DNA from: Nitrospirota bacterium
GTDB lineage: Bacteria > Nitrospirota > Nitrospiria > JACQBZ01
Assembly: GCA_016200255.1 (NCBI GenBank)
Contig: JACQFA010000039.1
Span: 13,678 to 77,677, forward strand
Length of the DNA: 64,000 nucleotides
Reading direction: 5' to 3'
Shown piece by piece: positions 805 through 61,343 of the stretch (position 1 is the stretch's first letter; every line of letters begins with the position of its first letter). The notes beneath the pieces were generated by a model. That model had not been told where the DNA came from and did no database searches. It was given only the letters and a program-made list of their open reading frames with translations. Made by a program: the position numbers and the translations under genes.

Positions 805-913
805 TGTTAAAATTACTAAACTTGCACCCCTGGTGTCAATCTTTTTCCCTGATTGTCAGGGGCTTGCGTCGCCCCCTCTCTCTCGCCGCGCTCGCTGGGG
901 ATTTACTGACCCA

Positions 914-1356: not shown

Positions 1357-3741
1357 ATGAAAGAGGGTGAGCGTTTTAAACGCGCATTCGAAGATGCCGC
1401 CATCGGCATCGCCCTCCTGGCCGTCAAACCTCTCGGTAAATACCTTGAGGTCAACCCGACCTTTTGCCGGATGACGGGCTACTCACGGGACGAACTGCTG
1501 GCCCGCGACTTTCAGAGCATCACGGCCTCTCAAGACATCGATAAAAACCTCGAACAGTTGCAATTACTGCTGCAAGGAAGCATCCCCTCCCTCCACTTGG
1601 AAAAACGGTACGTCAGAAAAGACGCCGGCTCGTTCTGGGCCCGCTTGTATGTCTCGTTTGTACGGAACGACCAGGGAGCCCCTCAATACTTTATCGTCCA
1701 AATTGAAGACATTGATGAGCGCAAGCGAGCGGAGGAGGCGCTACGCGCGAGTGAAGAGCGATTCCGCGCGTCATTCAAAAATGCGGTCGTCGGGATGGGA
1801 TTGGTTGATCGATCGGGACGGTTTGTCGAGACGAATCGAGCTTTATCCGATATTACCGGCTACTCGGAGGAGGAGCTGAAGAGGCTGACGTTCAGGGATA
1901 TCACCCATCCCGATGATCGGGCGGACAATAACGCCATTTATCAAAAAATGATGGAAGAAAAGCGGGAAGGGATCGTGATCGAGAAACGGTATCGCAGAAA
2001 GGATGGAGCAATCGTCTGGGTCACCGTCAGTGTGGGAGCGATTTTCGACATGCAAGGCAACATCACGCATACAATCGGGCTGATCGAAGACATCACCGAG
2101 CGCAAGCGGGCGGAGGAGGCGCTGGTCGAGTCGAGTCAATTCAATCAACAGGTCATCACCAATGCGCGCGAAGGCATCATCGTTTACGATCGTGAAATAC
2201 GATACAAGGTTTGGAACGCGTTCATGGAGGAACAGACCGGCCTGCGGAAGGAGGAGGTCTTGGGAAAACACCCCACGGACATCTTTCCGCTTCTCAAAGA
2301 GCGGGGGAGAATATTCGTCGAGAAAGAGACGATGGAAGGGATCCAGGCCTCGGCGAAACGGGCGTTGACTGGCGAGACCTTCACGTACTTTGACGTCCCA
2401 TTCCTTATACCCCAAACCGGCGCGACGGGTTGGAATTCGGTGCGATTCGGTCCGTTCCGCAACGCGCAGGGCGAGATCATCGGCGCCATCGCGACCGTGT
2501 GGGAGATCACCGAGCACAAACGGCTGGAAGAACAACTCCGCCATGCGCAAAAACTTGAAGCAATCGGCCAACTGGCCGGAGGCGTGGCTCATGAGTTCAA
2601 CAACATGCTGACGGCCATCATCGGCAATCTCGATCTGGCCATCGGTCAGATCCCCCCGGAATCGGATCAGCATTCCACCCTGACCGGTGCGTTGCAGGCC
2701 GCGCGCCGCGCCGCAATGCTGACGCAACAGCTGCTCACCTTCAGCCATCGAAGCCCGATGGATCCTCAACCTCAGAACTTGGGTCTCATCGCCGATGAAG
2801 TTGTACACCTGCTTCGTCAAACGATCGATCGCCGCATCCAGGTCTCCGTCCGGAACGGGAACGGTCTCTGGCCGGTTCTGGCCGATGCCGGCCAGTTGCA
2901 CCAGGTCATCATGAATCTCTGCGTCAATGCACGAGACTCCCTCGTGGAACACATGGAAGAACTCTCTCTCCCTTCCGTCCCGCCCGCATGGGAGCCCCGG
3001 ATCCTCATCGCTTCGGAGAATGTGCATCTCGATGAAGCCGATTGCAAGGGGCGTTTCGAAGCCCGTCCGGGAGAGTATGTCTGCCTCTCGGTCAGAGATA
3101 ACGGATGCGGCATTGATGAAGAGGTCCGCCATCGTATTTTCGAACCTTTCTTCACCACCAAGGAAGTCGGTCACGGCACGGGGCTGGGCCTGGCCGCGGT
3201 ACATGGGATCATCAAACAACATGAAGGATGGATCGAACTATCCAGCATGAAAAACCTGGAGACGACCTTCAAGATCTACCTCCCCCGCACGCATCGCACG
3301 ACCGTCCCGGTGCCTGCAAGCAGCACAGAGGAAGGGATCACGCGTGGGACCGAAATCATTCTGTTCGTCGATGACGAAGCGTCGATCCGCCGGCTGGGTC
3401 AAACCATACTGGAACATCACGGCTACAGCGTTCTGCTGGCGAAAAACGGCGAGGAAGCACTGGAGGTTTTTCAACGGGAGCACGATCGCATCAAGCTGGT
3501 TGTTCTTGACCTGACGATGCCCCGTATGTCGGGACTGGAAGTTTTAAAGCGGCTGCTGAAGCTCGATCCTAAAATCAGAGTTCTGATCTCAAGCGGCCAT
3601 CACATGGCCGGCGATTCCGGCGAACTTCAGAATCTCGGGGCGGTTGAATTTGTTCCGAAACCCTACCGGCCCGACGATCTGGTGCGAAGCGTGAGAAAAC
3701 TTTTGGACGCCTCCGCTTCTCCACAAAGACAAGCCTCTTGA
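1357..3741 (+). CDS. Hybrid sensor histidine kinase (multiple PAS/PAC, HisKA, HATPase_c, C-terminal receiver domain)
   Basis: Repeated PAS segments; H-box LEAIGQLAGGVAHEFNNMLTAI; ATPase G-boxes DNGCGIDEE...GHGTGLGLAAVHGI; C-terminal REC domain ILFVDDEASIRR...VVLDLTMPRMSGLEVLKRL. Confidence 0.9.
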   Translation: MKEGERFKRAFEDAAIGIALLAVKPLGKYLEVNPTFCRMTGYSRDELLARDFQSITASQDIDKNLEQLQLLLQGSIPSLHLEKRYVRKDAGSFWARLYVSFVRNDQGAPQYFIVQIEDIDERKRAEEALRASEERFRASFKNAVVGMGLVDRSGRFVETNRALSDITGYSEEELKRLTFRDITHPDDRADNNAIYQKMMEEKREGIVIEKRYRRKDGAIVWVTVSVGAIFDMQGNITHTIGLIEDITERKRAEEALVESSQFNQQVITNAREGIIVYDREIRYKVWNAFMEEQTGLRKEEVLGKHPTDIFPLLKERGRIFVEKETMEGIQASAKRALTGETFTYFDVPFLIPQTGATGWNSVRFGPFRNAQGEIIGAIATVWEITEHKRLEEQLRHAQKLEAIGQLAGGVAHEFNNMLTAIIGNLDLAIGQIPPESDQHSTLTGALQAARRAAMLTQQLLTFSHRSPMDPQPQNLGLIADEVVHLLRQTIDRRIQVSVRNGNGLWPVLADAGQLHQVIMNLCVNARDSLVEHMEELSLPSVPPAWEPRILIASENVHLDEADCKGRFEARPGEYVCLSVRDNGCGIDEEVRHRIFEPFFTTKEVGHGTGLGLAAVHGIIKQHEGWIELSSMKNLETTFKIYLPRTHRTTVPVPASSTEEGITRGTEIILFVDDEASIRRLGQTILEHHGYSVLLAKNGEEALEVFQREHDRIKLVVLDLTMPRMSGLEVLKRLLKLDPKIRVLISSGHHMAGDSGELQNLGAVEFVPKPYRPDDLVRSVRKLLDASASPQRQAS

Positions 3742-3780
3742 ACTACCGCATCCGGCGCCTGTATAATGAGACCAAACCTT

Positions 3781-3880
3781 CCCAGCGAGTAAAACGAGCG
3801 AGAGGGGGAGGCTCCATCCGGCTTTATCGGCCTGCACTCGGCGGTTTGCAGCCGATGTGTGGAGGGGGCGACGCGAGCCC
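3781..3880. repeat. Dispersed intergenic repeat, copy A (carries an extra internal hairpin), immediately upstream of the yggX RBS
   Basis: ccagcgagtaaaacgagcgagagggggaggctccatccggct...ggagggggcgacgcgagcccct matches 60641-60718 over about 65 nt. Copy A carries a 37-nt insert that forms the hairpin atcggcctgca/tgcagccgat. Confidence 0.7.
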
Positions 3881-3899
3881 CTAAACATAGGAGGATCGC

Positions 3900-4151
3900 A
3901 TGGCCGAGGTAAAGTGTGTGCATTGTCTTCAAACCCGCGAGGGGATTACGGGATACGCTTATGGGGGAAAGCTCGAGGCCGAGATCAAGTCGAAAATCTG
4001 CAATCCCTGCTGGCAGGAATGGAAGGCCATGTCGATCAAGGTCATCAACGAATACCGCCTGGATCTCAACGATCCGAACGCGAACAAGACGCTCATGGAG
4101 AATATGCGGGGCTTCCTCAATATGCCCAGCACCGAGGGCCAGCCGAAGTAA
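3900..4151 (+). CDS. yggX: Fe(2+)-trafficking / oxidative-damage protectant protein YggX
   Basis: MAEVKCVHCLQTREGITGYAYGGKLEAEI..CNPCWQEWKAMSIKVINEYRLDLNDP matches the YggX family pattern. A strong RBS (taGGAGGatcgcATG) precedes the start. Confidence 0.8.
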   Translation: MAEVKCVHCLQTREGITGYAYGGKLEAEIKSKICNPCWQEWKAMSIKVINEYRLDLNDPNANKTLMENMRGFLNMPSTEGQPK

Positions 4152-8420: not shown

Positions 8421-9551
8421 GTGGAAAACTTCAGTCCATCCAGACCGACATCATCGAAACCCTTGTTGAGACATATTGTCCTTGGGTTTATCAGTCTAAG
8501 CCTGATCTTTTTGTTTAACACCATGCCCCACACCGGTCCAACCGGACTGACCGCCAGCGCCATGAGCAGCGCGCGGATAGATACCCCATGGCTGGGGACC
8601 CGCCAACTGGGATCATCTGGTAACGATAACCCTTCTGCGGTCGCCGTGGACGGAAGAGGGAATATCTATATTGCGGGCTTCACCGATGGCGATCTCGATG
8701 GGAACACCAATGCCGGAGGTAACGACCTCTTCCTGGTCAAGTACAATGCCGCCGGCAAAAAGATTTGGACCCGCCAGTTTGGAACAGCCGGTAGCGACAG
8801 GGCTTGCGGCGTCGCCATAGATGAAAGAGGGAATATCTATCTATCAGTCACCACCTCCGGCGACCTCGATGGAAATACGAATGCCGGACTTGCTGACCTC
8901 TCCATCGTCAAGTACAACGCCGATGGCAAAAAGATTTGGACCCGCCAGTTGGGAACACCCTTTATAGATCACGCTCAGGGCATCGCCACGAATGGAAGAC
9001 GAAACATTTATGTGGCGGGCCATACCGACGGGGACCTCGATGGAAACACGAATACCGGACTCACCGACCCCTACCTCGTCAAGTACGATGCCGACGGCAA
9101 TAAACTTTGGACCCGCCAGGTCGGAACAGCCGGTAACGAGCAGGCTTTAGCGGTCGCCGAGGATGGAAGCGGGAATATCTATGTGACGGCCGACGGCAAT
9201 AAACTTTGGACCCGCCAGTTCGGAACAGCCGGTGACGATGAGGCTTCAGCGGTCGCCGTGGACGGAAGCGGGAATGCCTATGTGACGGGTTACACCTACG
9301 GCGATCTCGATGGAAACACGAATGCCGGACTCGCCGACCCCTTCCTCGTCAAGTATGATGCCGATGGCAATAAACTTTGGACCCGCCAGTTCGGAACAGC
9401 CGGTACCGACACGGCTACCGGCGTCGCCATAGATGGAAGCGGGAATATCTATGTGACGGGCTACACCTACGGCGACCTCGACGGAAACGCGAATGCCGGA
9501 CTCGCCGACCTTTTCCTCGTCAAGTACGATGCTGATGGCAATAAGCAGTAA
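8421..9551 (+). CDS. SBBP (beta-propeller) repeat protein with N-terminal signal anchor
   Basis: Repeats of the form ...AVAVDGxGNIYVTGYTxGDLDGNTNAGLADxFLVKYDADGNKLWTRQFGTAG...; N-terminal hydrophobic segment IVLGFISLSLIFLF. The track starts the ORF at a GTG. The ORF ends in mid-repeat. Confidence 0.7.
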   Translation: MENFSPSRPTSSKPLLRHIVLGFISLSLIFLFNTMPHTGPTGLTASAMSSARIDTPWLGTRQLGSSGNDNPSAVAVDGRGNIYIAGFTDGDLDGNTNAGGNDLFLVKYNAAGKKIWTRQFGTAGSDRACGVAIDERGNIYLSVTTSGDLDGNTNAGLADLSIVKYNADGKKIWTRQLGTPFIDHAQGIATNGRRNIYVAGHTDGDLDGNTNTGLTDPYLVKYDADGNKLWTRQVGTAGNEQALAVAEDGSGNIYVTADGNKLWTRQFGTAGDDEASAVAVDGSGNAYVTGYTYGDLDGNTNAGLADPFLVKYDADGNKLWTRQFGTAGTDTATGVAIDGSGNIYVTGYTYGDLDGNANAGLADLFLVKYDADGNKQ

Positions 9552-9784
9552 ATGGAACGACAACCAACCGCACCACGCTGGTCACGTAAAGGGGTAAAGG
9601 CTCAAGTCTGCTCTTGACTCATCTTGGATGATCGTGTTATCTTCCCGCCATGTCACGTCCCCTTTGCATTGAATATCCGGCGCCTACTATCACGTCATGA
9701 ACCGGGGCTTGGCCTACCAGTGGGAAGGTTGACGGACTTTTGATTTTTCGGCTCGCCGCATCGTGCAGTGAAATCCCGCGACTG

Positions 9785-33278: not shown

Positions 33279-33449
33279 TCAGATTTCTTCCGGGCGCAAC
33301 TCTTCTGACCCATCACTTGCACCATCTACCGTATACTCCCACCCAGCAATATCCGTCAAGTGAAAAAGAACGATACGAATGATCTGAAATGCCTGTTGCT
33401 TTTTAGATCGGAGATGGAGTATTCTAAGCCCGAAATTTTGGGACATTCG

Positions 33450-34082
33450 ATGATACCGCTGCAACAATTTTATGAAGAGATCAAGGATTGCCAGAAGTGC
33501 GGGTTATGCAAATCACGGACGCATGTGGTATTCGGGGAAGGGAACCCCCATGCCGAGATCATGTTCGTGGGCGAGGCTCCAGGTGAGAATGAAGACCTTC
33601 AAAACCGGCCGTTCATCGGCATGGCCGGAAAACTGCTCACGGATCTACTCGCAAGCATCGGAATGAAACGCGAGGACGTCTATATCGCCAATGTCGTCAA
33701 ATGCCGTCCGCCGGAGAACCGCAACCCCGCGCCGGATGAGATCGAGTCCTGCAAACCGTATTTATGGAAGCAGATCGAGATGATCAAGCCCCGTGTCGTC
33801 TGCACGCTCGGAAATTTCGCGGCCCAGGCGGTTCTGGATAAAAAAGTGGCGATCACCAAGGTTCGCGGCCAGCATCTCCAGGTCAAAAATTTTCTGGTTT
33901 TTCCCATGCTCCATCCCGCCGCCGCGCTTCACCAGGGGAACCTTCGCCCCGCCCTTTTGGAAGACTTCCAGAACCTGAAGAAATTTCTCGGCCAAGGAAT
34001 ACAGCCGGCACCGCAGCCCGAACAGACCAGTTTTTTCTACATCATCCCCGTACTTCATGAAAATCACACCCTCCATCCCTGA
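33450..34082 (+). CDS. Uracil-DNA glycosylase, family 4 (paralog 1)
   Basis: [36 protein letters not shown]...GMAGKLL...NVVKCRPP. The track ORF starts at an upstream GTG (33360). Family alignment favours the start at MIPLQQ. Confidence 0.85.
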   Translation: MIPLQQFYEEIKDCQKCGLCKSRTHVVFGEGNPHAEIMFVGEAPGENEDLQNRPFIGMAGKLLTDLLASIGMKREDVYIANVVKCRPPENRNPAPDEIESCKPYLWKQIEMIKPRVVCTLGNFAAQAVLDKKVAITKVRGQHLQVKNFLVFPMLHPAAALHQGNLRPALLEDFQNLKKFLGQGIQPAPQPEQTSFFYIIPVLHENHTLHP

Positions 34083-42658: not shown

Positions 42659-42889
42659 AATCCACCTCCTATGGTTGTTGGATCTTGTTGTTCATCCATC
42701 CCGTGCAGCAAGTCCATAGTGCAGAGTCCGTGCCAATGCATATTGAAGGGATAGAAGGGTGTCCACTTCATGAATTGTGCGATATATTCGAGGAGAAAAC
42801 AGGAAAGCAGAGACGGCAAGCGGAACGGATATGTCTCGTGATTCAGGTCGGCAGTCGGAATCATGCGTCAGCGTTCATAAGAAAATCCC

Positions 42890-42918
42890 TTGACACCATC
42901 CGACCCGTTTGGTAGCAT
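42890..42918 (+). promoter_or_regulatory. Sigma70-like promoter P1 (TTGACA-17-TAGCAT) upstream of the FecR-domain gene; duplicated at 44779-44807
   Basis: TTGACAccatccgacccgtttggTAGCAT. The same ~45-nt sequence occurs at 44770-44815 with 3 substitutions. Confidence 0.55.
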
Positions 42919-43031
42919 CGCGCGGACCGTCCGCACCTGTCGGTGACCGCCGACACCCGGCTGCGCAGATGCATACTTGATTCTTCCTCCCCATCGGGAT
43001 CATAATCTCCTTGGGTAAGGAGAACCTGACC

Positions 43032-44771
43032 GTGTCTGTGATCATCCGGGTGCTGGCCGTGCTGTTGTTGTTGAACCTGGCGAGCGTGTTTCCGCCACTG
43101 GCCTACGCAGAAGAAGAAACGTCCGACCCCTACGGAACGGTGCGGCTTTCCCGCATCAGCCTCATCGAGGGGGAGGTACTCCTTCAGCGGGGCGATGATG
43201 AAGAGTGGGTGGCGGCCTCCGTCAACATGCCGCTTCGCCCTCACGATAAACTCTGGGCGACCGACGACGCTCGTGCCGAAATCCAGTTTGACGACGGGAC
43301 CGCGGTTCGCCTTGCCGAAAATTCCAATCTGGACCTCGTAAGCCTGGAGCCGGACTGGATCCATCTCCAGCTCACATTGGGCGTGGCCAGTTTCGCGGCC
43401 CGGGCCTCTTTCCGCGCGGGCGCGCGCCAGCCCTTTCTCGAGATCGACACCCCGCAGGCCACGGCCCAGGTCACTCGTTCGACGGCGTTTCGGGTGGATG
43501 TGGCGGAGGACGGTTCAACCGTCATCACGGTCCGTGACGGTGAGGTGGAACTGAGCCGCGATGAGGAGCCGATCATGATCGCCGCCGATCAACGCGTCGC
43601 GATCGAGGGAGGCGACTCCCCGGACTATCTATTGGAAGCGGCCGAGCCGCCGGATGACTGGGACCGATGGAATAAAGATCGCGATACCCAACGGGCCCGG
43701 GCCGCGGACCATGAGCATCTCCCCTCCGGTACCGAGATGGGGGTGACGGAGTTGAATACCTACGGCAACTGGAATCAGGTCCAGACCTACGGCTGGGTTT
43801 GGATCCCCCAAGTGACCGCGGGTTGGACTCCCTATCATATCGGCCGATGGGTCTGGATGGAGCCGTGGGGCTGGACCTGGGTCTCCTACGAACCATGGGG
43901 TTGGCTCCCCTATCACTATGGCCGGTGGGTCATGGTCGGAGGCAGGGGATGGGTCTGGGTGCCGGGTCCGACTCTTGGAATTTGGACGCCAGGCTGTGTT
44001 CGATTTTTTTATGGGCCGAACTGGGTGGGCTGGGTGCCGCTCGGACCGGGCGAGGTCTACTATTACTATCCCGGCGCTTCCGTGAATATCGATATCAACC
44101 TCGTCAACTATCCTGTCCCGGGGGCGGCGATCGTGATGTCCCGGCGTCGCTTCGTCACGGGCCTGCCGGAGGAAGAAAGGTTTATTCCGCCCAAAGATCC
44201 GATTCGGGCCGGGCGGGTGGCGGTCGGTCCGCCGCCGGTCGTGCCGACACGCGCCAGCCTGCATCCCGCGCCCGAGACAGCGGTCCCGGCGGATCGGCTT
44301 CCGCCCCAAACGATCCATCGCCCGGTGGTCTATACCCGCACCCCGCCGGCTCCGCCGCCCCTCTTCGAGAACCGGGTAAAGGAAATTCAGGGCGTCGTCA
44401 CGCAAGGCCGTCCCCCCGCCGCGCCCTCGCTTCCGGAGAAAGGTGTACCGGGTGCCGAAGAGCGTCGCGCCGCAAGCGGGAAAATCCGCAAAGACATCAC
44501 GGTCAGGAAAATGATCGCACCCTCTACGCTCTCGACCTTTCCAAACCGGACGCCGCGCCCGCCGGAGGAGCGCGCCGCGCCGAGTCATGAAGCCAAGAAA
44601 AGGCAACCCTCTCCTCCCAAGAACGTTAAGTTGGCGAGGACACCTTCGGAACCCTCCGCTCCGCAAACATTGGAGGGACGAACACAACAAGGCCGGCCCC
44701 TCTATCGGAAGCCGCCATCCAACCCCGCCCCCGCGGTTGTTCCTCCCCCCCAAGGCGACGGATCGCACTAA
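43032..44771 (+). CDS. FecR-domain secreted protein with a Trp-rich repeat region and a Pro-rich C-terminal tail
   Basis: An N-terminal signal peptide, then FecR-like VRLSRISLIEGEVLLQRGDDEEW...AEIQFDDGTAVRLAENS. The middle reads WVWIPQVTAGWTPYHIGRWVWMEPWGWTWVSYEPWGWLPYHYGRWV and the C-terminal 200 aa are Pro/Ala-rich. The start was chosen at the GTG after an AAGGAG RBS; the track ORF begins at a TTG at 43011. Confidence 0.65.
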   Translation: MSVIIRVLAVLLLLNLASVFPPLAYAEEETSDPYGTVRLSRISLIEGEVLLQRGDDEEWVAASVNMPLRPHDKLWATDDARAEIQFDDGTAVRLAENSNLDLVSLEPDWIHLQLTLGVASFAARASFRAGARQPFLEIDTPQATAQVTRSTAFRVDVAEDGSTVITVRDGEVELSRDEEPIMIAADQRVAIEGGDSPDYLLEAAEPPDDWDRWNKDRDTQRARAADHEHLPSGTEMGVTELNTYGNWNQVQTYGWVWIPQVTAGWTPYHIGRWVWMEPWGWTWVSYEPWGWLPYHYGRWVMVGGRGWVWVPGPTLGIWTPGCVRFFYGPNWVGWVPLGPGEVYYYYPGASVNIDINLVNYPVPGAAIVMSRRRFVTGLPEEERFIPPKDPIRAGRVAVGPPPVVPTRASLHPAPETAVPADRLPPQTIHRPVVYTRTPPAPPPLFENRVKEIQGVVTQGRPPAAPSLPEKGVPGAEERRAASGKIRKDITVRKMIAPSTLSTFPNRTPRPPEERAAPSHEAKKRQPSPPKNVKLARTPSEPSAPQTLEGRTQQGRPLYRKPPSNPAPAVVPPPQGDGSH

Positions 44772-44778
44772 AAATTTC

Positions 44779-44807
44779 TTGACACCTTCCGACCCGTTTG
44801 ATAGCAT
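44779..44807 (+). promoter_or_regulatory. Promoter P2, a duplicate of P1 (TTGACA-17-TAGCAT), at the left edge of a lower-GC island
   Basis: TTGACAccttccgacccgtttgaTAGCAT, followed by about 300 nt with no convincing ORF before the gene at 45125. Confidence 0.5.
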
Positions 44808-45124
44808 CGCGCCGTCTGAAGCATCCAGTCCGTTTTTTATAGTTTAACGTTGCTGCGCACCACATCGGCCGAGACGGGCATGCCACTGCCCGATCCGAGC
44901 GGTCGAGGGAGATTACGTCCCCCGGCTTCAAAACCGATCACGCTTTTTCGCACCTTGCCCCCAATTGAATTCTATCCGGACATGGGCCTCAAGTTCACCT
45001 CAATCGTCTTTGGGCTTGTTTTAAATTTTTCGAAGGTCAAAAACCCTTTTCCAATTCCAAGATCTGTAGTTTGATTTTCTGAAGGAATTGGCTTATCCTT
45101 TTATGGGTTCAAAAACAAATCATT

Positions 45125-46365: not shown

Positions 46366-47340
46366 ATGAACTACAAAGCTAAATTGACTAAAGGACTTCG
46401 TAGTGCAGGGTTGCTGGGCTGGTTGCTTGCCTTGGGATTATTGTATGGCTCTGGTGGGGAAAGTGCTGGTGGTAGTAGCGGTGCCACACCGCAGATCTAC
46501 GTGGCAGACGTTTTCAACCACCGGATCGTGCGGATCAATGACATGACCGGTGCGGGCTGGACCACTCTCGGCACCGAAGGCAACGGGGCCAACCAGTTTC
46601 GCAATCCTGACGGCATTTTTGTAGATGCGGCCGGGAAGATCTACGTGGCAGACTCTTTTAACAACCGGATCGTGCGGGTCGATGACATGACCGGTGCGGG
46701 CTGGACTACATTCGGCACCGTTGGCGCTGGGACCAATCAGTTTTCCAAGCCAACTGGCATCTTTGTCGACACAGCCGGGAAGATCTATGTGACAGACTTT
46801 GTCAGAATCGTGCGGGTCGATGACATGACCGGCACGGGCTGGACTACATTCGGCACCGTTGGCGCTGGGACCAACCAGTTTCATAATCCTGGCGGCATTT
46901 TTGTAGATGCGGCCGGGAAGATCTACGTGGCAGACTCTTTTAACAACCGGATCGTGCGGGTCGATGACATGACCGGCGCGGGTTGGACTACATTTGGTGC
47001 CTCCGGCAATAGGTCCAACCAGCTTAGCGGTCCGGAGGGCATCTTTGTGGATGCAGCCGGGAAGATCTACGTGGCAGACCCCGACAACCACCGCATTGTA
47101 CGGATGAATGACATGACCGGCGCGGGTTGGACCACTCTCGGCACCCCTGGCAGCGGGACAAACCAATTTAGATACCCGTTTGGCATTTCTATAGACACGG
47201 CCGGGAAGATCTACGTGGCAGATGAAAGCAACCGTATTGTGCGGATGAATGACATGACCGGTGCGGGTTGGATCACACTCGGCACCCCTGGCAGCGTGAC
47301 AAATCAATTTCACGTTGCAAGGAACATCTTTATCCGATAG
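46366..47340 (+). CDS. NHL-repeat (six-bladed beta-propeller) protein with signal peptide
   Basis: Repeats of ...GKIYVADSFNNRIVRVDDMTGAGWTTFGT.G.G.NQF..P.GIFVD.A...; N-terminal hydrophobic segment LLGWLLALGLL. One repeat is shortened (KIYVTDFVRIVRVDD). Confidence 0.75.
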   Translation: MNYKAKLTKGLRSAGLLGWLLALGLLYGSGGESAGGSSGATPQIYVADVFNHRIVRINDMTGAGWTTLGTEGNGANQFRNPDGIFVDAAGKIYVADSFNNRIVRVDDMTGAGWTTFGTVGAGTNQFSKPTGIFVDTAGKIYVTDFVRIVRVDDMTGTGWTTFGTVGAGTNQFHNPGGIFVDAAGKIYVADSFNNRIVRVDDMTGAGWTTFGASGNRSNQLSGPEGIFVDAAGKIYVADPDNHRIVRMNDMTGAGWTTLGTPGSGTNQFRYPFGISIDTAGKIYVADESNRIVRMNDMTGAGWITLGTPGSVTNQFHVARNIFIR

Positions 47341-60025: not shown

Positions 60026-60540
60026 ACAAAACCAGGGCCCGCCGCAATCGTTCTACCGGAACTTCAAAACCGATCAAACTGGGCTGGGTCAGCCGCTCCC
60101 CGGAGGAAACACGCGCATACGGCGAACGGATCGGAAGGCTCCTGACCGGGGGCGAGTGGCTTGCGCTGGAAGGAAAACTCGGAGCCGGAAAGACGCAGTT
60201 CATCCAGGGACTGGCGCGGGGATTGGAGATTACGGATCGTCCGGTCACCAGCCCCACCTTCGTGTTCGTCCATGAATTCCGAGGACGCCGCCCGTTCGCC
60301 CATGTGGATCTGTTTCGGATCGAGCGCGAGGAGGATCTGCTGGATCTCGGCATACTGGAATATCTTGACAGCCCATGGGTGGTTGCGATTGAATGGGCCG
60401 ACAAGGCGGGACGTTTCCTGCCGGCCGAACGACTCACCATCCGACTGACCCACCTGAGCGAGACAAGCCGGACGATCGAGATCGAAGCGGCCGGCGCACG
60501 GGCAAAAAAAATACTGGATGATCTAAAAAGAAAGAATTGA
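60022..60540 (+). CDS. tsaE: tRNA threonylcarbamoyladenosine biosynthesis ATPase TsaE
   Basis: LEGKLGAGKTQFIQGLARGL Walker A and SPTFVFVHEF; ATGA overlap with nnr. Confidence 0.8.
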   Translation: MNKTRARRNRSTGTSKPIKLGWVSRSPEETRAYGERIGRLLTGGEWLALEGKLGAGKTQFIQGLARGLEITDRPVTSPTFVFVHEFRGRRPFAHVDLFRIEREEDLLDLGILEYLDSPWVVAIEWADKAGRFLPAERLTIRLTHLSETSRTIEIEAAGARAKKILDDLKRKN

Positions 60541-61343
60541 TGGATAAAGAATCCGCACGCATCGTCCTCGACAACCTCAGGACCTACATTCAGATGTACC
60601 GGGAATGGGGATTGGAGGGGATAAGCGTAAACCTGAACATCGAAAAACCAGCGAGCAAAGCGAGCGAAAGGGGGAGGCTCCATCCGGCTGTGCCGGTGGA
60701 GGGGGCGACGCGAGCCCCTATGATAATATCAAAATCCGCCGCGCTCGCCGCCCTTCGAACCGAGATCGGCGACTGCACGCGGTGCAAACTGCACACCGGC
60801 CGGACCCATCTCGTGTTCGGGACGGGCGACCCGGAAGCTGGACTGATGTTCGTGGGCGAAGCGCCGGGCGAGGATGAAGACCGGCAGGGCCTGCCCTTTG
60901 TGGGCAAGGCCGGACAGCTCCTCACCCGCATCATCGAGGCGATGGGACTCAAACGGGAGAGCGTTTATATCGCGAACATCATCAAATGCCGTCCGCCCCG
61001 CAACCGGAATCCGGAGCCGGATGAAATCGCCTCCTGCTCCCCGTTCATCCAACGGCAGATCGAGATCCTGCGGCCCAAGGTGGTCTGCGCGCTGGGAAGC
61101 TTCGCGGCCCGGACCCTTCTGGGCACGGGACAAAAGATCTCGCAGCTCCGCGGACGATTTCATGATCTGCCGATCCTGTCGTCCGACGGCTCCACGGCCG
61201 GGATCAAGGTCATGCCGACCTTTCATCCGGCTTACCTGCTGAGAAACCCGGACGATAAAAAACGGGTCTGGGAGGACATGAAAATGATCATGCGTGAACT
61301 GAATCTGCCTGCGCGGACGGCCGGAAGCGGGGCGCCCCCATGA
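60537..61343 (+). CDS. Uracil-DNA glycosylase, family 4 (paralog 2)
   Basis: [38 protein letters not shown]...GKAGQLL...NIIKCRPP. The longest ORF starts at 60537, but the first 61 codons contain the dispersed repeat, so an alternative start at 60720 ([12 protein letters not shown]) is plausible. Confidence 0.8.
60641..60718. repeat. Dispersed repeat, copy B (short form), in the 5' leader / N-terminal extension of the second UDG gene
   Basis: ccagcgagcaaagcgagcgaaagggggaggctccatccggctgtgccggtggagggggcgacgcgagcccct matches 3782-3876. It ends in the hairpin GGGGC-gacgcga-GCCCC, which lies 2 nt before an in-frame ATG (60720). Confidence 0.7.

Follow-up and report, generated by a model that had tools for sequence, protein, structure and literature searches.

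Copies of the repeat in the window

The window analysed here was a 64,000-nt stretch of DNA from a Nitrospirota bacterium (contig JACQFA010000039.1, positions 13,678–77,677). It contained three copies of a short structured repeat: copy A in the leader of yggX, copy B inside udg, the gene of a family-4 uracil-DNA glycosylase (UDG), and a shortened copy C upstream of gltB. The repeat is probably a family of small non-autonomous structured mobile DNA elements, and its copies were gained, lost and decaying at orthologous sites. The unit of ~72–82 nt was composed of a core of ~72 nt and an A/T-rich tail of ~8 nt. The core contained, in order, the hairpin P1, a G-rich linker GAGGGGGAGG, the variable hairpin P2 and the hairpin P3 (GGGGC-GACGCRA-GCCCC). 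The features of the window are given below with the evidence for each.

858–898, minus strand: copy C, shortened to P1, GAGAGAG and P3 (sequence probe, covariance model, sites of relatives)
3738–3767, plus strand: predicted sigma-70 promoter of yggX, TTGAAC-18-TATAAT (promoter scan)
3782–3882, plus strand: copy A core (sequence probes, covariance model, empty orthologous loci), with P1 at 3785–3790/3794–3799, G-rich linker at 3800–3811, P2 at 3812–3864, P3 at 3865–3881, then T3882
3826–3856, plus strand: extra hairpin of copy A, ATCGGCCTGCA...TGCAGCCGAT, nested at the apex of P2
3883–3890, plus strand: A/T-rich tail AAACATAG after copy A
3900–4151, plus strand: gene of a YggX-like Fe(2+)-trafficking protein (open reading frame list; homologues carry PF04362)
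60540–61343, plus strand: udg, family-4 uracil-DNA glycosylase gene (open reading frames, identical annotated protein, homologues)
60648–60719, plus strand: copy B, canonical 72-nt core (probes, covariance model, protein and DNA alignments), with P1 at 60651–60656/60660–60665, linker at 60666–60677, P2 at 60678–60701 and P3 at 60702–60718

The initial annotation had described a repeat present twice in the window. The repeat itself was confirmed by two shared words: the 20-mer GGGGGAGGCTCCATCCGGCT of the 5′ half had two exact occurrences, at 3804 and 60670 (0.01 in shuffles), and the 22-mer GGAGGGGGCGACGCGAGCCCCT of the 3′ half was located at 3861 and 60698 (0.00 in shuffles). When two mismatches were allowed, GGAGGGGGCGACGCGAGCCCCT also matched positions 858–879 of the minus strand and revealed copy C, so that the number of copies rose to three. 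The cores of copies A and B were corrected to 3782–3882 and 60648–60719, respectively, and the terminal hairpin GGGGC-GACGCGA-GCCCC was present just as described. With a covariance model built from relatives and run with filters off, copy B (60644–60728) scored 92.9 bits, copy A (3785–3885) 55 bits and copy C (849–902, minus strand) 32 bits, and no further copy was found in the window below E=2.

Copy A in the yggX leader

The end of copy A was separated by 7 nt from the GGAGG at 3890 and by 17 nt from the ATG at 3900. The predicted promoter of yggX lay 15 nt upstream of the copy, and copy A therefore lies within the transcribed leader of the gene. The extra hairpin at the tip of P2 made copy A 29 nt longer than copy B. 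The initial annotation had recognised an insertion with its own hairpin here, which was retained, and had given its size as 37 nt, which was not. At this place the model aligned 40 nt compared with 11 nt in the consensus, and the region was also paired in a single-sequence fold. Unrelated inserts occupied the same place of P2 in other members of the family.

Three orthologous yggX loci (L124, L125 and L126, where L with a number labels a compared genome locus) encoded YggX proteins 94%, 86% and 83% identical to that of the window. All three shared the same promoter, short leader and GGAGG site, and all three were without copy A. The filled site of the window was read as ...AAACCTTCC(CAGCGAG...GAGCCCCT)AAACATAGGAGG..ATG, with the element in parentheses, and the empty sites of the relatives as ...AACTTTCC/ACAAACGGGAGG..ATG. 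The junctions, ...CCTTCC(element)AAACATAGG in the filled and ...CTTTCC/ACAAACGGG in the empty sites, were clean and showed no target duplication, as judged at this one insertion. Because promoter, leader and Shine–Dalgarno (SD) site were kept in orthologues that lacked the element, copy A is, to judge from these alignments, a lineage-specific insertion ~15 nt into the transcribed leader, made without target duplication. The empty sites already read ACACACAG, ACAAACGG or ACGTACGG at the position of the tail, and the AAACATAG that follows copy A could be either the 3′ tail of the element or native leader sequence.

As a separate observation, the native yggX leader contained a CUUUCC/CCUUCC tract able to pair with the SD sequence GGAGG a few nucleotides downstream (compare L126, ~1170–1190). 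Copy A splits this tract (window 3775–3781) from the SD sequence (3890–3894).

Copy B in the inter-domain linker of UDG

The ATG of udg at 60540 overlapped the stop codon of tsaE (TGATG). Relatives showed the equivalent arrangement, a 4-nt ATGA start/stop overlap of tsaE and udg, and the gene order tsaE-udg-HIT-LapA was conserved. A 267-residue protein identical to the UDG of the window is annotated in NCBI, and the 36 residues ahead of copy B were conserved in homologues as distant as those of Acidobacteria. In both protein and DNA alignments, copy B formed a 24-codon in-frame insertion in the hypervariable linker between the domains of UDG. The initial annotation had placed copies A and B alike in 5′ leaders; this held for copy A, whereas copy B was inside the udg frame, and the ATG at 60720, taken for a start codon after copy B, was an internal in-frame codon. 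The annotation of udg should keep the long form, with a 24-residue linker insertion encoded by the repeat.

The same element peptide was found in a homologue 74% identical to the window UDG, and other homologues carried different repeat-derived segments or none, a patchy presence in the linker. By inspection of copy B, all six reading frames of the element were open, and therefore the element was able to sit in frame inside a protein linker.

Two further observations concern this gene family. The window contained two paralogous family-4 uracil-DNA glycosylase genes (33360–34082 and 60540–61343) with 71–76% DNA identity over the core, and the conserved N-terminal segment and the repeat-bearing linker occurred only in the second. 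In addition, a GTAG-tagged palindrome, GTAGGGGCGACGCATGC(C/G)TCGCCC(G/C)TAC, was located in the UDG linkers of L120 (~920–950) and L121 (~1600–1630), where it was translated as VGATHASP(V/L).

Copy C upstream of gltB

The promoters of gltB and of a small zinc-ribbon gene were divergent, and copy C was positioned between the two, upstream of the gltB promoter and outside any leader. It was without P2 and without one GAGGGGG repeat, and the missing part corresponded exactly to the interval between two GAGGGGG direct repeats. The same site upstream of gltB held a full-length copy in L130, a decayed remnant in L129 and no copy in L131, and the short form was seen again in the unrelated genomes L030 and L101. 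This series identifies copy C as a deletion derivative of a full copy that is present at the same site in a relative, and as a decaying relic.

Distribution and architecture of the family

The family was searched with the exact 21-mer GAGGGGGCGACGCRAGCCCCT from the 3′ end of the element, with one genome per species. At least 118 genome stretches were matched exactly. Among the matches listed, most were metagenome-assembled genomes of Nitrospirota (Troglogloeales, Manganitrophaceae, Nitrospiria). The other hosts were Syntrophorhabdaceae, Syntrophus and other ‘Deltaproteobacteria’, with four uncultured ‘Pseudomonadota’, a Bdellovibrionales bin and a Patescibacteria bin as minor hosts. Three of the listed matches were complete chromosomes (a Syntrophorhabdaceae bacterium, a Manganitrophaceae bacterium and a ‘Deltaproteobacterium’). 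None came from the organism of the window itself, and the similarity was confined to the element. The covariance model located 124 copies in 100 loci. Among viral contigs there was one exact match only, and the element is therefore not phage-borne. One host label, the ‘Myxococcales’ of L028 (CAYZSU01), is doubtful because a single contig may have been binned twice: this contig and that of L040 (CAYZUL01, Nitrospirota) both measured exactly 32101 bp and came from different co-assembly bins.

The consensus of the 5′ part was yCA-(P1: GCnnnC-loop-GnnnGC)-G(t)tGA-GGGGGAGG, and that of the 3′ part was (P2: CTCCa..GGC-ttt-GCC..tGGAG)-(P3: GGGGC-GACGCRA-GCCCC)-T-ATAAtAG. The centre of P1 was often a tandem G.A/A.G mismatch, P2 varied in length and tolerated nested inserts, and two GGAGG motifs were invariant in the family. 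Conservation began at −3 on the 5′ side; on the 3′ side, the flank had the consensus T-ATAATAG and the information content stopped at +9. The GC content of the element was 64 ± 4% in host loci of 39–65% GC.

Copies ranged in size from ~41 nt (the core of the short form) to ~170 nt, and in the larger ones P2 enclosed unrelated hairpins or a 90-nt sequence. A supposed second family, which seemed to share only the 3′ module, was found to be the same element with a ~90-nt insert nested in P2. In L001 (4304–4722), a perfect tandem array of 4.9 copies (period 86 nt, 100% identity) occupied the space between two co-oriented genes of a complete Syntrophorhabdaceae chromosome.

The stems P1 and P2 covaried strongly. 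In the 124 model-aligned copies, 235 cells were changed on both sides, compensatory change was found in 16 of 21 pairs, and the covariation score was 0.248 compared with 0.02–0.04 for slid partners; none of these measures was reached by any of 500 shuffles. The three-hairpin structure was supported by this covariation. Compensatory variants of P3 (GGGGA/TCCCC and GGGGT/ACCCC) occurred in copies outside the exact-match set. The stems contained 44–51 G.U pairs compared with 13–18 A.C pairs, about three to one. This excess and the tandem G.A of P1 indicate that the strand as written folds, and not its complement. The folding strand was usually the sense strand of the neighbouring genes.

No matching Rfam family was found for the repeat: the whole window gave no match at gathering thresholds, and the surroundings of copy A gave only noise at E up to 10. 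The element was not described in the literature as covered by full-text searches with sequence strings and keywords (REP, RAYT, MITE, Nitrospirota, Syntrophus). A protein search with a 70-residue concatenate of its three-frame translation returned two weak matches only. The family is apparently undescribed.

A second type of repeat, a hairpin GTAGATACCCACGGGC-aag-CCCGTGGGTATCTAC, was located directly 5′ of many Nitrospirota copies and abutted the element in L056, L057, L010, L014, L035, L067 and L075. Some of these hairpins contained a loop insert of ~85 nt (L037, L021, L018 and L033). An outer closing stem ATCTA...TAGAT, considered as a part of the element, was rejected; it occurred in some Nitrospirota copies only and derives from an adjacent GTAGAT...ATCTAC hairpin.

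Position and orientation relative to genes

The gene downstream of a copy was co-oriented with the element in 71 cases and opposite in 18 (80% co-oriented), and the gene upstream was co-oriented in 61 and opposite in 19. The GC skew in the orientation of the element was positive in 72 of 95 loci, a value confounded with gene orientation. The following start codon was nearer to the element than was the stop codon before it, and was often only 5–25 nt away. The median gap from the end of the model to the next start codon was ~13 nt; the model end already includes ~10 nt after GCCCCT, and the gap values are approximate and biased downwards because the first start codon of the open frame was partly used as the start. 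Together, the family-wide sense bias and the proximity to start codons may reflect an effect at the RNA level.

Starts only 5–10 nt after GCCCCT were those of an asnB-like gene, coaX, queA, guaA, alaS, radC, ribH and fabH (loci L007, L018, L075, L077, L024/L048, L084, L050 and L093). These genes had recognisable N-termini, and that of the asnB-like gene included the obligatory Cys2. Their junctions contained only an A/T-rich spacer and no SD sequence, and the nearest GGAGG was located just upstream of the 17-nt P3. Other copies lay 5–7 nt upstream of tRNA genes.

These positions raise the alternative of a portable cis-acting RNA module, in which the folded element would form the 5′ edge of the ribosome-binding region. 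Such a module would present its own GGAGG (in the linker, or 5′ of P3 with P3 bridging to the AUG) or protect the 5′ end of the mRNA, and its spread would be tolerated or favoured through the translation initiation or stability that it supplies. The 80% sense orientation, the short median gap and the starts without SD sequence are what this explanation predicts, and the two invariant GGAGG motifs, the strand-specific fold with G.U well above A.C and the location of copy A in the yggX leader downstream of a predicted promoter agree with it. However, the gaps were biased downwards by start calling, the 3′ GGAG was paired within P2 in the covarying structure, and translation is irrelevant to the copies in front of tRNA genes. 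As to the three window copies, the yggX orthologues kept the same SD sequence without the element, copy B was translated, and copy C was decaying outside a transcript. An RNA role is contradicted as a necessity by the yggX sites that lack the element, by the decay of copy C and by the copies before tRNA genes, and the module was judged unlikely to explain the family.

The initial annotation had also offered a cis-regulatory RNA structure as a reading of the repeat. For this window, that reading found support at none of the copies: orthologues of yggX had the same promoter and SD sequence and lacked the element, copy B was coding, and copy C was upstream of a promoter and in decay. A recent insertion, a translated insertion and a relic give no support for a dedicated regulatory role, and no evidence was found for dedicated regulation of yggX or udg by the element. 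The repeat should not be called a riboswitch or a leader regulator in the annotation of the window.

A promoter cassette was also considered, in which the 3′ flank (GCCCC)TATAAT would be a −10 box that drives the downstream gene or tRNA. The flank consensus T-A-T-A-A-T-A-G resembles such a box, and copies were close to and co-oriented with downstream genes, some of them immediately before tRNA genes. By inspection, however, no −35 box was present at the right spacing, since the 17 nt upstream are P3, preceded by GTGGAG. The A at −11 was only 46% and the T at −7 only 52% conserved. Starts 5–10 nt after GCCCCT and tRNA 5′ ends at +5/+6 left too little room for a transcription start. Measured against a sigma-70 promoter, with boxes at a spacing of 16–18 nt, conserved −11 A and −7 T and space for a start site, the TATAAT-like tail was thus unconvincing as a −10 box. 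In addition, yggX had its own conserved promoter upstream of copy A, and covariation of stems would be needless in a promoter of double-stranded DNA. The cassette was regarded as highly improbable.

Duplicated gene ends beside the element

About 12 of 127 copies (~10%) were flanked by long direct repeats of 17–73 nt, which corresponded to the last codons and the stop codon of the upstream gene. The layout was gene..(A)-stop-spacer-(element)-~8 nt-(A′)-stop. The genes with duplicated ends were rplL, secE, grpE, udg, a NifU-like gene, an acyl-CoA dehydrogenase gene and a tRNA gene. The loci were as follows.

L092: 449–640
L049: 3200–3350
L047: 4560–4790
L051: 7540–7760
L046: 785–870 and 4267–4351
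L041: 1483–1600
L078: 4300–4450

The differences between A and A′ were almost all at synonymous sites. In L092, GCG AAG ACT AGC GGC CTT TAA was paired with GCA AAA ACA TCA GGA TTA TAA; in L049, three of three codon changes were synonymous, and in L046, eight of nine. At rplL, three successive versions of AAGAKVELK* were stacked. The right junctions were located ~8–9 nt after P3 in most flank-carrying copies (range ~3–10 nt), with 17–73 nt of upstream flank captured on the other side. In L092, the codons switched between host-like and foreign-like within a 17-nt identical core.

Target duplication was rejected as the source of A and A′: the two would begin identical and the non-coding copy would decay randomly, which was not seen. 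Apparent tandem arrays of a ‘mini-ORF plus element’ in L092 and L049 proved to be one element each, with a duplicated gene 3′ end on either side. The pattern of A and A′ fits one homologous crossover, in which a small circle with a foreign gene end and the element would have recombined with the resident gene. On this evidence, transfer from one genome to another would involve the element and the adjoining 3′ end of the gene that precedes it. Such transfer would account for its presence in distant and compositionally different hosts.

A bolder form of this idea is a new kind of mobile element, which would cross species and phylum borders as a unit of a housekeeping-gene 3′ end and the three-hairpin element, be integrated by homologous recombination of the host, leave behind the displaced native gene end and then act as a ribosome-binding leader through an exposed GGAGG. 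Taken as a whole, this scheme is rather doubtful. If true, the hitch-hiking on gene ends would offer a selfish element an unusual way to cross large phylogenetic distances with little need for enzymes, and alleles would also be replaced by it at the 3′ ends of core genes.

A probable non-autonomous mobile element

The reading of the repeat as a REP-like (repetitive extragenic palindrome) or MITE-like (miniature inverted-repeat transposable element) sequence in the initial annotation was sound as to the kind of element: the family is multicopy and dispersed, is present or absent at orthologous sites, contains nested inserts and includes an in-frame copy. The details of both classes were not found, neither the tag of a classical REP nor the terminal inverted repeats and target duplication of a MITE.

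The non-autonomous element would be mobilised in trans by an enzyme that recognises the folded single strand and that, by analogy, would resemble the HUH-type single-strand transposases of IS200/IS605 insertion sequences (IS), RAYTs (REP-associated tyrosine transposases) or IS91. Copies in sense orientation would survive since the G-rich strand is free of stop codons, of a terminator and of a C-rich tract for Rho loading. At times, the 3′ end of an upstream gene and the element would pass to another genome as one small unit and be integrated via homologous recombination.

Several results weigh against a purely mobile nature. To judge from the starts without SD sequence, the element seems at least to allow, and may itself provide, translation initiation, and some insertions were conserved between species, such as that at alaS in L024 and L048. 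The linker and P3 did not vary between phyla, and R was the only variable position of the P3 loop among the exact matches; this invariance exceeds that of most selfish repeats and would be expected also of a functional RNA or a protein-binding site. Single-sequence folds were no stabler than those of shuffles (z −0.4 to −1.0), and the minimum-free-energy structures differed from the covarying ones. Finally, TnpA sequences of IS200 and IS608 gave no tblastn match better than E=0.4 in 0.93 Mb around copies, a weak search that a single-copy gene elsewhere in a genome would escape. A full-length parent, with the 5′ and 3′ modules separated by a gene, was not found in the compared loci.

In practical terms, the family is an abundant structured repeat of Nitrospirota and several Desulfobacterota lineages that has no curated model. 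It will cause false calls of conserved RNA motifs and of N-terminal extensions in metagenome-assembled genomes, and a covariance model would allow the element to be masked or tracked.

Other repeats of the window lay apart from the element. A 42-nt promoter-like sequence, TTGACACC...T(G/A)GTAGCAT..., was duplicated at 42882–42923 and 44771–44812; the two copies, 1.9 kb apart, were 90% identical. At 8577–9659 and 46493–47334, tandem repeats with unit lengths of 171 nt and ~144 nt, respectively, presumably represent repeat domains in coding sequence.

Comparison with known systems

A REP is defined by an unpaired GTAG/CGTC tetranucleotide at one end of a 20–40 nt palindrome (PMC3733652). Like REPs, bacterial interspersed mosaic elements (BIMEs) and REPINs, the element was short, GC-rich, hairpin-forming and multicopy, was mostly intergenic between co-directional genes, had G.T pairs in its stems and lacked terminal inverted repeats and target duplication. 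It also had occasional in-frame copies in repair genes, and REPs inside DNA-repair genes are documented (PMC3733652). A classical REP or BIME mobilised by a RAYT, or a derivative of IS200/IS605, would account for these traits, for the hairpins at both ends and for the fold of one strand. In the same genomes, GTAG-tagged palindromes (GTAGGGGCGACGCATGCGTCGCCCCTAC) had an arm, GGGGCGACGC, equal to the 5′ arm and loop start of P3, and GTAGAT...ATCTAC hairpins abutted many copies. However, the element started with yCAGC and ended with GCCCCT and an A/T-rich tail; GGAG and not GTAG preceded P3, and neither the GTAG nor the CGTC tag was present. In place of a 20–40 nt palindrome or an inverted dimer, it had three different hairpins, always in the same order and joined by invariant linkers, and a strong bias to a single orientation. 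The same core, nearly identical, occurred in several phyla, whereas REPIN–RAYT systems are described as lineage-specific and vertically inherited. The weak tblastn search of 0.93 Mb gave no Y1 transposase near copies. This origin was considered improbable.

As to MITEs, the 5′ end CCAGCGAGC and the reverse-complemented 3′ end AGGGGCTCGCG were unrelated, and no target duplication was found between the filled and empty yggX sites. The attC sites of integrons are imperfect palindromes whose ends, RYYYAAC ... GTTRRRY, pair together; the ends of the element were not complementary, and its three hairpins were serial.

Riboswitches and other cis-regulatory RNAs share with the element a covariation-supported structure on the transcribed strand. 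Nevertheless, no curated family was found in Rfam, the element was absent from the three orthologous yggX leaders and thus had no fixed position before orthologous or related genes, and the genes downstream of its copies were unrelated housekeeping genes and tRNAs.

BOX repeats of Streptococcus pneumoniae and ERIC (enterobacterial repetitive intergenic consensus) or Correia-type repeats resemble the element in their modular design, a variable middle part framed by conserved 5′ and 3′ modules, in co-transcription with neighbours and in internal insertion and deletion variants. The termini of these repeats are complementary or inverted, and short target duplications are made by several of them; in contrast, the element had asymmetric ends and no duplication at a simple insertion. 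None of these repeats is known to extend beyond a genus or family.

The Rickettsia palindromic elements (RPEs) are inserted in frame into proteins at tolerant surface or linker positions and add a repeat-encoded peptide, as did copy B and the copy in protein P0005. The sequences are unrelated, most copies of the present family were intergenic, and RPEs are not known outside Rickettsia.

Asymmetric ends, terminal or subterminal hairpins, strand-specific structure and lack of terminal inverted repeats and of target duplication are shared with IS200/IS605 and with IS91/ISCR/Helitron elements. As in IS200/IS605, each end had a hairpin (P1 on the 5′ side, P3 on the 3′ side), and the structure was strand-specific without terminal inverted repeats or duplication. 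However, no defined target tetranucleotide was found: at the left end, where a fixed target tetra- or pentanucleotide would lie, no sequence was conserved beyond yC. No matching full-length IS with tnpA was present among the compared loci. The one-ended capture of IS91/ISCR/Helitron elements is resembled by one apparently precise end, ~8 nt after the 3′ hairpin, and another that varied and included upstream host DNA. In contrast to these elements, the flank carried came in every case from the 3′ end of the neighbouring gene, and integration would seemingly be by homology.

The prophages e14 and phage 21, which integrate at icd, bring with them a replacement for the 3′ end of that gene. The insert of the present element was only ~100 nt and encoded no integrase, in contrast to these prophages. 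The resulting arrangement was nevertheless alike, with a gene, a new 3′ end, the inserted DNA and the displaced old 3′ end in succession, and the two ends differed mainly at synonymous sites (L092, L049, L046, L047 and L051).

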